From Escherichia coli (lineage in GTDB: Bacteria > Pseudomonadota > Gammaproteobacteria > Enterobacterales > Enterobacteriaceae): DNA of 64,000 nt. Below, piece after piece: positions 2,897 to 52,613 of this stretch (positions within the stretch are counted from its first letter, which is position 1; each line of letters opens with the position of its first letter). Below the pieces are notes generated by a model, which saw nothing but the letters and a program-made list of their open reading frames with translations, was not told the origin of the DNA and did not search any database. Location of the stretch: the NCBI RefSeq assembly GCF_045037415.1, contig NZ_CP173438.1. One strand, 5' to 3'. The translations under genes and the position numbers were made by a program.

Positions 2897-3096
2897 TCCT
2901 GATTTAATGTCGCGAGTTCGCCAAATCGGCCTGGATTAATCTTCGTCCAGGTTCGAGGGCCTTCTTAATACTGCCTATCTACCCGCCTGATAACGTTCAA
3001 AAATAATACAAATCGCAGTTTGTGTTAAAACAGTGGGTTAGCTTTATGAGATTATCCTTATCGCCCCTTCAAGAGCTAAGCCACTGTGAGTGCCGG

Positions 3097-3163
3097 AGAT
3101 AAGCGCCGGATGGGGTAGAAACCCTTAAGCCTGTGTCGCACAGACTTAAGGGTTTTCTTATTT
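3097..3163 (+). ncRNA. rydB: candidate small RNA RydB (coordinates approximate)
   Basis: K-12 encodes the ~68-nt sRNA RydB between ydiH and sufA; a strong intrinsic terminator hairpin ends here at ~3164. The 5' end is not determined from sequence. Confidence 0.4.
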
Positions 3164-3164
3164 C
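3121..3164 (+). terminator. rho-independent terminator (nested GC stem acccttaag...cttaagggt followed by tttcttattt)
   Basis: Inverted repeat with T-rich tail read directly from the sequence. Confidence 0.6.
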
Positions 3165-3385
3165 TGAACGCTGCACTTTTTTACCTATCCCTTAAATAGT
3201 CATTTTCAATGCAACTTTTTCTTTTTCATCACAGCCTTAATGCTCCTTAGATAATAATCATTATCTAACAATGAGATACCTAATTCTTAGCGTGCCTGTT
3301 AACCCACAAATCAGGGTCTATGCTTATTAAAAGCAGGTAAAAAGCATGTTTTACGCTAAAGCCCCTGCGTTTGCTGGGTTGAACT

Positions 3386-3404
3386 GATAATCATTATCAC
3401 TAAC
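3386..3404 (+). promoter_or_regulatory. Fur box in the sufA promoter
   Basis: gataatcattatcactaa is a near-consensus Fur operator (GATAATGATAATCATTATC), about 40-60 bp upstream of the sufA ATG; the suf operon is known to be Fur-repressed. Confidence 0.7.
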
Positions 3405-3444
3405 ATGCTGTTATACGCTGAAAGCGATGAAGTGAGGTAAATCG

Positions 3445-48458: not shown

Positions 48459-49064
48459 TTACTTTAAGCCTTCCGCTGACAGCGCGTCTTGTACTTCCGG
48501 ACGTTCAGCCATACGTTGCATAAATGCCGCAATGTGCTCTAACCCTTCCAGATTCAGTTTCACCGCGTATGCCCAGCGCAGAACCGTAAACAGATAGGCA
48601 TCAGCAATTGTGAATCGTTGCCCGCAGATCCAGTGCTCATCCTTCAGGGCCTCGTTCACATATTGCAGCTTCTTCTCCAGCTGCGCGCGAACTGTCGGTT
48701 TGTACTCTTCCGGTGTATCAGGGCGAAACAGAGGTGTGAAACCTTTATGCAGCTCGGTGGCGATGTAATTCAGCCATTCGATGGTTTTATAGCGGGAAAT
48801 ACTGTTTACCGGTGCCAGCAACTGGCGGTCGGGGACGCTGTCGGCAAGATACTGCATAATCGCTACGCCTTCCGTCAGCAAAGTACCATCGTCCAGCAGC
48901 AATGCAGGTACCTGTCCCTTAGGGTTAACGGCAAAGTAATCGTCACCGTTTTCGAGACGTTTTTTCATTAAATCCACACTGACGAGCGTAAAATCCTTTC
49001 CGCTCTCACGCAGGGTGATATGGGAAGCGAGAGAGCAGGCGCCCGGTTTGTAGAACAATTTCAT
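48459..49064 (-). CDS. gstA: glutathione S-transferase
   Basis: 201 aa [22 protein letters not shown]... Confidence 0.96.
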
Positions 49065-49169: not shown

Positions 49170-50672
49170 TTACGCTACGGCTGCTTTCGCCGCTTTGTCT
49201 GCAGCGTCATCCTGCGTCATGCGGTGCAGTTTCGGCGCGGTAAACAGCATCAGTACTGCAATAACGGCAGTAGCGACACCAATCTGCAAGAATACGCGAC
49301 CATAGACTTCCAGTGACATCAGCGGATCGGTAACGTTATCCGGCACAGCCATCATACCTGCAACATAACCACCAATCAGGTTTGCACCGGCAGTGGTCAG
49401 GAACCAGCTACCCATAATGAAGCCCATCAGACGCTGCGGAACGAGTTGTGCAACCATTGCCAGACCCAGGCCAGAGATCATCAGTTCCCCGATACTCTGC
49501 AGGCCATAGCTCGCGACCAGCCAGCTTACAGACACGATACCAGCGTCAGACGCGAATTTCGCACCCAGCGGCAGAATCAGGAACGCACCAGAACACATCA
49601 CCATGCCGATAGCAAACTTGGTTGGCATCGGCAGGGTATCGCCCATCTTGTTATAGATAGCGGCCAGAATCGGGCTACCAATGATGATCCAGAACGGGTT
49701 CAGTGCCTGATACTGCTCAGGTTCTACGGCCAGGCCCAGAATGGTGTGTTCAACGTTACGAATCGCAAAGAAGTTCAGTGACGTTGGCATCTGGCTATAA
49801 AGCACGAAGAAGATAATGGCTTCGAGCATCAGGATGAAGGCAACGATCATTTTACGACGCGCAGCACCTTTCATCGCGAAGGCTTCTTTACCGAAGATAA
49901 CCACAATACCGAAGGCAACAACGCCCAGCGCCATACGCGCAACTTCCTGATTGTGCAGCAGCCAGGTGGCGATAGCGATCAGTGCCACAACACCAATAAT
50001 GGTCAGCAGCAGGTTACGGTAGTTGATAGGCTCGAAGTCTGGTTTTGAACCGTACTGTTTAACCCAACGTTGGCAGAAGGCGAAGTTAACGATAGTGATC
50101 AGCAGGCCTACAACGCTCAACGCAAACGCAACACTCCAGCCGTATTTCGCGGCCAGCCACGGCGTAGCAATCATAGAGAAGAAAGAGCCGATGTTGACGG
50201 ACATGTAGTACATGGTGAATGCACCGTCCAGACGCGGGTCGTTTTTCTCATAGCATGTAGAAAGCAGAGAAGACGGGTTAGCTTTAAACAGGCCGTTACC
50301 GACCGCAATAGCCGCCATACCCATATAAACGATACCGGCGTCGTGACCAGACCAGGCAACCAGAGCATAACCAATCGCCAGCACAATAGCGCCGAGCATA
50401 ATTACGCGTTTAGTACCCAGTACCTTGTCACCTAACCAGCCGCCGATAGCGACCAGACCATAAACCAGGGCACTAAAGGAAGAGAAAAGGGTGATTGAAT
50501 CCGCTTCAGACATACCCAGTTGTTTAACCAGGTAAACAGCCATAATTCCTTGTAGGCCGTAATAACCAAAACGTTCCCATAACTCAATCGAGAAGATGAG
50601 ATAGAACGCCTTCGGTTGTTTAAAAGCGTTCAAACTGACGCTTTCAGTTGGTTTTTGGTTTGCAGTGGACAC
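49170..50672 (-). CDS. dtpA: proton-dependent di/tripeptide permease A (POT family)
   Basis: 500 aa, 14-TM POT/PTR2 transporter. Confidence 0.96.
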
Positions 50673-51282
50673 TTTTACCTCTTTTTTTACATCCCATATT
50701 AACGGGGGTGCTTTCTCGCGTTATGTCTAAAAAACATACGCGCAATTGTTATAGTGGGAGGGGAAACGGCAGGTAATGTTCACTATCTTGCACTTTCAGA
50801 CAAGTCCTTTGTAATAATCTGTTACATATAACTGAGGCGGGGAATTCAACCATTCCGGGAAATGTTATCCAGCGTTAAATTTTTCAAAAAACGTAACGGC
50901 AGATTTTTTCACTACCCTGAGAGGGTGATGATGGCTTAACGGCGATATGTTCTACTATTTAGCGTTTTTCCTAGTGAGATAGTCCAGTTTCTGAAAAATA
51001 GCCAGTGTAATGTTTTGTAGGTCAATATTTGTTGTGTGTGTAAATTTAAATGATTTTAACCTGATTCTTGCAATGTTTTTACATTGCCACAGCATCGTGA
51101 TCTTGATCACGAATGAATAGAAAATTTCGCTATTAAAAAAACAATTAACCTGCATTTTTGGTTATCTGCAAACGGATTACCTGATGATAACGCTAAGCAA
51201 TGGCATCATTGACGTTAAAAAGATGTTTTAAAAGAGGATAAAGAAAGGTTATGAATGGGGTAATCGGTGTTACCCCTGATCT

Positions 51283-51918
51283 TTAGATGTCAACTTTCTC
51301 TTTGTATTCACAAAGATCTTCAATAATACAAGAGCCACAGCGAGGCTTGCGGGCAATGCAGGTATAACGCCCGTGCAGGATCAACCAATGGTGGCAGTCG
51401 ACTTTAAACTCTGCCGGAACCACTTTCAGTAGCTTTTCTTCTACCTGTTCGACGTTTTTCCCCGGCGCAAATTGAGTACGATTGCAAACGCGGAAAATGT
51501 GCGTGTCGACAGCAATAGTCGGCCAGCCGTATGCAGTGTTTAATACGACGTTGGCTGTTTTACGACCTACACCAGGCAGGGCTTCAAGCGCAGCACGATC
51601 TTCCGGAACCTCGCCATTATGTTGTTCCAGTAATATACGGCAGGTTTTGATGATATTTTCTGCTTTGCTGTTATAAAGGCCAATCGTTTTGATATAGGTT
51701 TTCACCCCTTCAACGCCCAGTTCAAGCATCGCTGCAGGCGTATTAGCCACCGGGTAGAGTTTCGCCGTCGCCTTATTAACACTGACATCGGTCGCCTGAG
51801 CGGAAAGCAGTACGGCAATCAGCAATTCAAAAGGCGAACTGAAATTAAGCTCGGTGGTGGGATGAGGATTGTTCTCACGCAGGCGAGTGAGGATCTCCAG
51901 GCGTTTTGCTTTGTTCAT
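51283..51918 (-). CDS. nth: endonuclease III (DNA glycosylase/AP lyase, 4Fe-4S)
   Basis: 211 aa with HhH motif and C-x6-C-x2-C-x5-C cluster. Confidence 0.97.
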   Translation of the reverse strand: MNKAKRLEILTRLRENNPHPTTELNFSSPFELLIAVLLSAQATDVSVNKATAKLYPVANTPAAMLELGVEGVKTYIKTIGLYNSKAENIIKTCRILLEQHNGEVPEDRAALEALPGVGRKTANVVLNTAYGWPTIAVDTHIFRVCNRTQFAPGKNVEQVEEKLLKVVPAEFKVDCHHWLILHGRYTCIARKPRCGSCIIEDLCEYKEKVDI

Positions 51919-52613
51919 CAGACATTCCCTGTTTCACCGTTTGGCAATGCACGTTCGGCAGCTGCTTCAGTACGGCGCTTTTTCATTTTTTCATCAATCA
52001 GGTATTTTCCTGCCAGCATCAGTCCCAGGCCAATAAATGCACCTGGTGGCAGCATCGCCAGCAGGAAAGGGGAGTCGGTGTGGAAAATCTCCACGCGTAA
52101 TACTTTTGCCCAGCTACCTAACAGCGCATCTGCACCGTCAAACAACGTGCCATTGCCGATAATTTCGCGTAGTGAACCCAGCACGAACATGGCGCAGGTT
52201 GCGCCCATACCAATTGAAAAGCCGTCCAGTGCCGAAAGCGCCGGACCTTTTTTGGCGGCGAAGGCTTCAGCGCGGCCCACAACGATACAGTTAGTGACAA
52301 TCAGCGGAATAAAAATCCCTAATGATTGATACAGGCCAAAGGCGTAGGCGTTGATCAGCATCTGTACAGCGCTGACCACCGAGGCGATGATCATCACGTA
52401 AATGGGAATGCGGATCTCGGCGGGCGTCCAGTGACGCAGCGTCGAAATGGTCAGGTTGGTTAGCGTCAGTACCAGCGTAGTCGCAAGTCCTAAACCCAGA
52501 GCGTTAGTGGCAGTGGACGTGACCGCCAACAGAGGACAAAGGCCGAGCAGCTGGACCAGCGCAGAGTTGTTTTTCCACAACCCCTGAACAATAACGTCTT
52601 TAATTTCGCTCAC
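51918..52613 (-). CDS. rsxE: Rsx (Rnf-type) electron transport complex subunit E
   Basis: 231 aa membrane protein; 1-nt overlap with nth. Confidence 0.95.

Follow-up and report, generated by a model that had tools for sequence, protein, structure and literature searches.

What occupies the 610 bp that lie between nth and the peptide-transporter gene dtpA (also named tppB or ydgR) in Escherichia coli? We addressed this question in a stretch of 64,000 nt of E. coli DNA (contig NZ_CP173438.1; hereafter, the window), in which both genes are located on the minus strand, in the order rsx genes, nth, gap, dtpA, gstA. Unless stated otherwise, coordinates are those of the window, and signed positions are relative to the dtpA transcription start site (TSS). 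A preliminary description of this DNA, made from the sequence alone, had pointed to an unusually long, AT-rich, non-coding interval, and this is confirmed: the gap (50673–51282) is exactly 610 bp long, its GC content is 36.6%, compared with 50.3% for the whole window, with values down to 32.5–36% in 200-bp segments across 50900–51300, and it is the longest among the approximately 70 intergenic gaps of the window. No feature is annotated in the gap in the RefSeq entries of strains MG1655 or SK1144. The sequence is 100% identical to that of strain SK1144, differs from K-12 by 13 single-nucleotide polymorphisms (SNPs), and belongs to the core sequence of the species, being found in 5,423 of the 5,426 complete E. 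coli genomes with 95–100% identity.

The results described below make it quite probable that the gap is the cis-regulatory region of dtpA, comprising a weak promoter that depends on OmpR, a leader of 96 nt, and a distal module with fixed internal spacing. On the best reading of the data, the dtpA promoter region is ordinary in kind, rigidly organised, and responsive to multiple inputs. A control region of this type is a known kind of element, and the locus is a known one.

Conserved blocks at invariant distances

A scan with DtpA yielded 80 loci of Enterobacteriaceae that represent more than 20 genera. Every locus has nth upstream of dtpA, and in about 70 of the 80 the length of the gap is between 570 and 640 bp. 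In the alignment of the 80 loci, conservation is largely confined to distinct blocks (Table 1), with essentially randomised spacers between them; altogether, 211 of the 610 positions reach a conservation of 80% or more in over 20 genera. The distance between block A1, for which identity was calculated from 71 sequences, and the −10 block of the promoter was determined in 69 species. It is 364 bp in 63 of them; the five Escherichia have 365 bp, and one further species has 363 bp (standard deviation 0.29). Essentially no insertions or deletions occur within this span, and 39% of its columns average 26% identity to E. coli, that is, about random. The leader of dtpA varies in length by a few nucleotides, and the fast-evolving nth trailer (51153–51282 in the window) has a length of 93–160 bp across species (standard deviation 12.4).

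Within E. coli, block A is present in a single copy, and a BLAST search of all complete E. coli genomes found no paralogous copy. It is at least 99% identical in 4,953 of the 5,423 genomes and is more conserved than the gap as a whole. In some Citrobacter, block A2 is half of a palindrome, ATAGAAATTTCTAT. In Kosakonia and Phytobacter, block C is found at an unchanged distance. An open reading frame (ORF) of 141–142 codons plus other sequence has been inserted between nth and the module in Kosakonia sp. S29 and Phytobacter, and the module, which at one locus (L070) includes TGTGATTTTTATCACA, keeps the same distance from dtpA despite the insertion. Because an insertion beside nth leaves the distance between module and dtpA unchanged, the module belongs to dtpA and not to nth. 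Taken together, invariant blocks of 9–23 bp, random spacers, and fixed distances correspond to the phylogenetic footprints expected where proteins bind DNA as a stereospecific complex.

Some further observations concern variants of this arrangement. The extra sequence between nth and the module amounts to 450–570 bp at four Kosakonia and Phytobacter loci (L045, L052, L070, and L082), and the inserted ORF, which begins with MNFHPWLNALHI, is membrane-like and located on the opposite strand. At L070 and L082 the insertion lies upstream of the module; at L045 and L052 the module has diverged, and TGTTAA repeats take the place of the site for CRP described below. In one E. coli genome, GZ2408C (L088), the insertion sequence ISCro1 of the IS66 family is located at about 51070, approximately 302 bp upstream of the TSS, where it stands between the CRP module and the proximal promoter, the sole such case among the 5,426 genomes. 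In E. coli alone, the region 50850–51160 has a 10–11-bp periodicity of AA/TT (z = 4.0 compared with shuffles), suggesting intrinsic curvature, and this helical periodicity is not conserved across genera (mean z = 0.76).

The core promoter and its dependence on OmpR

The TSS of dtpA could be placed using published chromatin immunoprecipitation with exonuclease treatment (ChIP-exo). The supplement of Seo et al. (2017) contains, for dtpA, an OmpR peak at U00096.2 1710621–1710680, the centre of which is at −46.5 from the TSS. The distance between peak and TSS locates the TSS at U00096.2 1710697 (with the GTG at 1710793), which is 50768 in the window and 1,712,673 in U00096.3, and results in a leader of 96 nt from the TSS to the GTG. 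Therefore, the long leader that the preliminary description had proposed is unsupported for the documented promoter; a short leader was the outcome that this description itself had named as speaking against its proposal.

The −10 hexamer AACATT occupies exactly positions −12 to −7 relative to this TSS, and the core promoter, P1, is invariant across the genera of the alignment. During long-term evolution in stationary phase, an A to T mutation described as 'nth/dtpA +503/−108' was reported in three of four cultures, and dtpA mRNA was up about 23-fold. Counted from the GTG, position −108 is 50780 in the window, which is the first base of the −10 hexamer (base −12), and the mutation converts AACATT to TACATT. 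Because this up-mutation of the −10 hexamer raises the level of dtpA mRNA, P1 is a weak and activator-dependent promoter. A consensus promoter scan found no sigma-70 site that passed the threshold, versus 2.4 expected, and P1 is below the threshold.

A matrix for OmpR was constructed from seven sites (ompF F1–F4 and ompC C1–C3), each of which was confirmed at its expected place upstream of ompF or ompC in MG1655. Its best matches in the gap are at −127 to −108 and −110 to −91 (with a score of 9.1 each), at −67 to −48, and at −57 to −38. These matches overlap the ChIP-exo peak and the conserved block just upstream, that is, blocks F1 and E, which are 92–95% conserved. Tandem OmpR half-sites with a phasing of about 10 bp are thus present directly upstream of a poor −35 element, as is characteristic of OmpR-activated promoters, and, from its sequence, block E is probably an upstream OmpR site. 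The far-upstream blocks (−384 to −346) have weak scores with the same matrix, namely, 7.2 bits at −377 to −358, and 6.7. The expression of a lacZ fusion with the region −201 to +15 was reported to be strongly reduced without OmpR and to be repressed by excess OmpR, and dtpA is recorded as activated by OmpR (Seo et al., 2017). The preliminary description had expected OmpR control and a positive scan for OmpR boxes, and both are borne out by a ChIP-exo peak that is located on blocks conserved throughout the family and by the matrix matches on blocks E and F1.

The multiple regulators that had been suspected from the length of the gap are likewise documented. A published regulator table for dtpA assigns activation to pOmpR and repression to Leu-Lrp and GadX. 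Moreover, YdcI was found by ChIP-exo to bind upstream of dtpA, genomic SELEX (systematic evolution of ligands by exponential enrichment) identified tppB as a new CRP target, and tppB is a target of the small RNA (sRNA) GcvB via the R1 region of GcvB. The supplements of Adams 2021 contain no mention of dtpA. The gene is strongly induced in the gut. The inverted repeat under the ChIP-exo site of GadX is specific for Escherichia and is not kept in other genera. Four of the 13 SNPs that distinguish the gap from that of K-12 fall within the GadX site (50928, 50926, 50916, and 50914), and, given these, GadX control of dtpA may vary between strains.

The dtpA leader

The preliminary description had also raised the possibility of an uncharacterised element in the 5' untranslated region. 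This idea does not apply to the 405 bp upstream, which have no conserved structure (see below), but it is met in part by the short leader, which contains two conserved hairpins, one of them with compensatory changes. The analysis was based on an alignment of 25 leaders and a hand-drawn structure. In the first hairpin (HP1, 50717–50742), 83% of the cells are paired, compared with 30–43% in controls with slid partners, nine pairs change on both sides, and none of 500 shuffles reaches the covariation score. In the second hairpin (HP2, 50693–50706, CCCGU/AUGGG), all cells are paired. HP1 and HP2 are flanked by CCCCUCCC, the C-rich and invariant 5' end, and by an A-tract with the Shine-Dalgarno (SD) motif GAGG. 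In the minimum free energy fold of the E. coli leader, a CCUC pairs with the SD motif; both partners are invariant, and the fold is no better than those of shuffles (z = −0.85). Occlusion of the SD motif by the CCUC at the 5' end of the leader is a hypothesis that this modelled fold suggests. The non-canonical GTG start codon of dtpA (50670–50672) is kept in all 82 loci examined.

The leader of E. coli also includes an upstream ORF (uORF) of 12 codons (50702–50737, minus strand), which begins in the 5' arm of HP1, and in many genera an SD-like AAGG(C/T)GG is located just before it. This uORF was rejected as a conserved leader peptide: the start (ATG/CTG/GTG/GCG), the frame, and the length (3–31 codons) vary.

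For GcvB, near-contiguous complementarity to R1 (−20.3 kcal/mol) is found outside of the gap, in the CA-rich stretch CUGCAAACCAAAAACCAAC that forms codons 3–9 of dtpA (50647–50665, minus strand) and is conserved in all genera. The best duplex energy of GcvB R1 with the leader was no better than with shuffled leaders, 24% of which did as well, and an unrestricted RNAduplex comparison of the leader with GcvB was uninformative, since shuffles were as good. Codons 3–9 hold the only contiguous site and are, from their complementarity, the likely GcvB site of dtpA.

A distal CRP site and further inputs

The distal part of the module contains a near-consensus CRP site, which conforms to TGTGA-N6-TCACA, is one of only three GTGA-N6-TCAC sites in the 64 kb, and is kept in about 91% of the 45 non-redundant species that were also used for the structure and coding tests. 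With its near-consensus sequence, its rarity, its conservation, and the SELEX result, binding of CRP to this site, centred at −335.5, is well supported. FNR was rejected as the cognate protein, as the discriminating G of TGTGA is kept. The site is not located at any of the canonical CRP distances (−41.5, −61.5, −71.5, or similar) from the documented TSS.

Consensus scans with ambiguity codes were performed for Lrp, ArcA, IHF, and FNR over about 800 positions, with YAGHAWATTWTDCTR as the Lrp consensus. The best mean scores were obtained on the conserved blocks and were within the expectation for multiple testing. Block A2 agrees with the SELEX consensus of Lrp at 11–12 of 15 positions in most species, and blocks A2, B, C, and D have mean agreements of 10.4–11.9 of 15 (background 6.4 ± 1.8), both values being at chance level for the best of about 800 positions. 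The Lrp-like matches at A2, B, C, and D are spaced by 31, 41, and 27 bp, compared with an interval of about 30 bp in Lrp wrapping. The sequence that follows the CRP site is ArcA-like in Trabulsiella, Yokenella, and Franconibacter, with a score at chance level. As matches to a consensus, the Lrp and ArcA scores are compatible with binding and are no evidence of binding.

A three-part model of the region

In the organisation that we favour, the gap would consist of three parts. The first, about 130 bp beside nth, would be a 3' trailer that contains a hairpin and evolves freely. The second, from −384 to −1, would be a module that acts at the DNA level, with discrete protein-binding blocks held at fixed distances. 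In the proximal, documented part of this module, the weak sigma-70 promoter TTGTCT-17-AACATT needs OmpR bound to tandem half-sites at about −67 to −38, and probably also at −127 to −91, and GadX represses from about −150. The distal part, which we infer, would comprise the A/T-tract and TTTCTAT motifs, the CRP site at −335.5, and three to four further blocks, which most likely bind CRP and Lrp and possibly ArcA or YdcI; a stereospecific nucleoprotein assembly on these sites would tune P1 to carbon, amino-acid, oxygen, and pH status. In the third part, transcription starts 96 nt before the GTG, the leader has two hairpins with the C-rich 5' end on one side and an A-rich tract, followed by a strong SD motif, on the other, and post-transcriptional control by GcvB would probably be exerted via the CA-rich first codons.

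Several points weigh against this model. The TSS depends on one derived coordinate and on sequence logic, and a second TSS may exist upstream. At −335.5, CRP is far beyond the distances of known direct CRP activation, and neither class I nor class II action on P1 is compatible with this position. The fusion of −201 to +15 alone suffices for OmpR-dependent expression, any effect of the distal blocks on P1 is conjectural, and the matches of the blocks to the Lrp and ArcA consensus sequences are no better than chance after multiple testing. Furthermore, some Kosakonia are without the CRP site but with the proximal 290 bp, and, because the site has been lost there, the distal part is dispensable in some lineages.

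A stricter version of the model, which we put forward only tentatively and consider rather doubtful, would be that the approximately 365 bp from −384 to the −10 element form a single rigid nucleoprotein machine, with CRP-bent DNA and with Lrp, OmpR, and/or other factors wrapping or looping it. Every distance between sites would then have been selected to the base pair throughout the family, and CRP would act over 335 bp or via a second promoter with a leader of about 370 nt.

Alternative explanations

Such a second promoter, P2, would depend on CRP and be located about 45–70 bp downstream of the CRP site; its leader of about 370 nt would include blocks B to E, which would be transcribed and could act in RNA. 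P2 would be compatible with the three-part model, and we regard its existence as unlikely. The CRP site, near-consensus throughout the family and supported by SELEX, suggests such a promoter, as does the inability of CRP at −335.5 to act conventionally on P1, and E. coli has two candidate −10 hexamers, TAAAAT (Table 1) and TAAATT at 51043–51048. However, a TAnnnT hexamer in the column of the former is kept only in four genera, Escherichia, Salmonella, Citrobacter, and Yokenella, and not family-wide. Scoring of positional TAnnnT conservation gave matches only within the known blocks and none family-wide downstream of the CRP site, there is no conserved promoter at a canonical distance from the CRP site on either strand, and the consensus promoter scan yielded no −10 element for P2. 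With the E. coli hexamers, CRP would be centred at about −58 or −68 and not on the usual −61.5/−71.5 face. In addition, conserved RNA structure and covariation are absent from the would-be leader, and the OmpR study used only a single TSS, 96 nt before the GTG.

The second alternative, that the gap hides an unannotated gene for a small protein or a trans-acting sRNA, is highly improbable. The region is long and conserved in length, hairpins are present near nth, and E. coli does contain an ORF of 66 codons (50955–51155, minus strand). The preliminary description had judged this ORF not to be credible, and rightly so: its ATG is absent outside of Escherichia, and a 1-nt deletion causes a frameshift in E. 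albertii. Across the 45 species and all six frames, runs without a stop codon in at least 95% of the species do not exceed 26 codons, the longest being located over the core promoter, and conservation in the gap has no 3-nt periodicity. A structured RNA fares no better. With RNAalifold, the consensus energies of the 405-nt upstream module in the 45 sequences were between 0 and −2.3 kcal/mol on both strands, the same as for column shuffles, and an Rfam scan of 50000–52000 (E ≤ 10) returned only chance matches to small nucleolar and long non-coding RNAs, with 13–18 bits versus gathering scores of 40–50. A terminator scan found four terminator-like hairpins, of which only the nth-proximal one is meaningful. 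Moreover, MG1655 has no annotation here, and the conserved pieces are blocks of 9–23 bp, as for protein-binding sites.

Least credible of all is the view, implicit in the use of the gap as a neutral landing pad, that the distal 300–400 bp are functionless AT-rich spacer or H-NS-type filler: strains with nth-ydgR insertions are viable and in wide use, an IS66-family element is present at about −302 in one natural genome, and the −201 to +15 fusion keeps OmpR control, but the conservation data speak strongly against this view, with 211 conserved bp between randomised spacers in more than 20 genera, a virtually indel-free span of 364 bp, a block A that is more conserved within E. coli than the whole gap, and a CRP site that is near consensus and was selected by SELEX.

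Comparison with known regulatory regions

Like ompF, dtpA has a weak sigma-70 promoter with tandem OmpR half-sites, phased by 10 bp, just upstream of the −35 element, and a long conserved upstream region that extends to about −380 (in ompF, F1–F3 are located at −100 to −40 and F4 at −380 to −350). Also as for ompF, low levels of OmpR have been reported to activate dtpA and high levels to repress it. In contrast to ompF, the osmolarity response of dtpA differs, and its far-upstream blocks are only weakly OmpR-like, with a CRP site among them instead. The repression at high OmpR does not depend on an F4-like loop, because a fusion that lacks everything beyond −201 is still repressed.

The Lrp-dependent ilvIH and gltBDF promoters are complex multi-factor promoters with phased upstream sites. 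The dtpA region resembles them in having several conserved protein sites with strict spacing over 200–300 bp upstream of a weak promoter, and Lrp is among the regulators recorded for dtpA in the literature; it differs from them in that its matches to the Lrp consensus are not significant. To our knowledge, indel-free spacing over 364 bp throughout a bacterial family has not been described for ilvIH or gltBDF. With class I and class II CRP promoters, dtpA shares a conserved CRP site of 16 bp that is near consensus and was positive in SELEX; however, in dtpA it is centred at −335.5 from the sole documented TSS. Finally, tppB/dtpA is a recorded R1 target with a CA-rich, R1-complementary stretch, like the GcvB-controlled mRNAs of amino-acid and peptide transporters (dppA, oppA, and others), but, unlike in targets of that type, the best contiguous complementarity is within codons 3–9 and not in the intergenic leader, and HP1 and HP2 are not known to belong to a described GcvB site.

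Implications

Phylogenetic footprinting provides a parts list, at base resolution, for a transporter gene that is strongly induced in the gut and in which up-mutations arise repeatedly during evolution under starvation. Besides a distal CRP site, the list contains at least five blocks that are conserved throughout the family with essentially invariant spacing, and it represents a case of a long-range promoter architecture with spacing constraints. The most striking result is the spacing, which is base-pair-exact over 364 bp in the whole family, with a consensus CRP site 335 bp from the only mapped start. The results also have a practical aspect. The nth-ydgR gap routinely serves as a 'neutral' chromosomal landing pad for reporter libraries (Kuhlman & Cox, 2010; the massively parallel reporter assay strains of Urtecho et al.). 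Its users should be aware that conserved regulatory sequence makes up one third of the gap. An insertion may cut dtpA off from some of its regulatory inputs, or may place the reporters next to DNA bound by CRP or OmpR. If the region were indeed a single rigid machine, the landing pad would be located inside or beside a regulatory region whose spatial constraints are among the strictest on the chromosome.

Features of the locus and its surroundings

Table 1. Coordinates of genes, sites, and conserved blocks at the nth-dtpA locus
Feature	Window coordinates	Position relative to TSS	Strand	Sequence	Remarks
gstA	48459–49064		minus
dtpA (= tppB, ydgR)	49170–50672		minus		GTG start; peptide-transporter gene
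Leader	50673–50768		minus	5' CCCCUCCC (50756–50763); SD GAGG (50678–50681)	96 nt; order: C-rich 5' end, HP1, HP2, A-tract, SD, GTG
Conserved 3' end of leader	50674–50712	+57 to +95			includes SD
Conserved core promoter and 5' end of leader	50745–50803	−35 to +24
Core promoter P1	50768–50803		minus	−35 TTGTCT (50798–50803); −10 AACATT (50775–50780)	17-nt spacer; TSS 50768
OmpR ChIP-exo footprint	50785–50844				contains block F1
Block F1 (OmpR)	50808–50830	−62 to −40		TATATGTAACAGATTATTACAAA	mean 95% identity
Block E	50860–50882	−114 to −92		AAATTTAACGCTGGATAACATTT	two OmpR-type 10-bp half-sites; mean 92% identity
Block D	50902–50913	−145 to −134		(C/T)AGTGAAAAAATC; TAGTGAAAAAATC in E. coli
GadX ChIP-exo site	50911–50931			inverted repeat CACCCT..AGGGTAGTG	repressor; U00096.2 1710534–1710554
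Block C	50941–50956	−188 to −173		AGTAGAACATATCGCC (family consensus AGCAGAACATATCGCC)	mean 89% identity
Block B	50973–50998	−230 to −205		TTTTTCAGA (50990–50998) and GACTATCTCACT (50973–50984; family consensus CTATATCACTG)
Candidate −10 of hypothetical P2	51053–51058		minus	TAAAAT	hypothetical CRP-dependent promoter
Semi-conserved stretch	~51066–51095	~−327 to −298		GATAAC..TGTT..TGTT
CRP site	51096–51111	centre −335.5 (51103.5)		cGTGATCAAGATCACg; TGTGATCnnGATCAC in most genera	near-consensus
Block A2	51114–51126	−358 to −346		AA(A/T)TTTCTAT; AATTTTCTAT in E. coli
Block A1	51136–51152	−384 to −368		CAGGTTAATTGTTTTTT	motif and T-tract; mean 88% identity (71 sequences); upstream edge of rigid module
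nth 3' hairpin	51257–51276		minus	GGGGTAA-CACCGA-TTACCCC	7-bp stem; terminator-like; fold z = −1.45 for whole stretch
nth	51283–51918		minus

The hairpin in the nth trailer has no adjacent U-run, and a T-rich stretch begins about 15 nt further on. Other genera have a different GC-rich hairpin at this position, that is, it is kept as a feature and not as a sequence. The second-longest intergenic gap of the window, with 548 bp, is that between ydiH and sufA (2897–3444), which contains the complex suf promoter. The interval between grxD and rnt (34126–34354) contains two short pseudogene fragments that are annotated in the matching genome, one of a helicase C-terminus and one of an endonuclease N-terminus.

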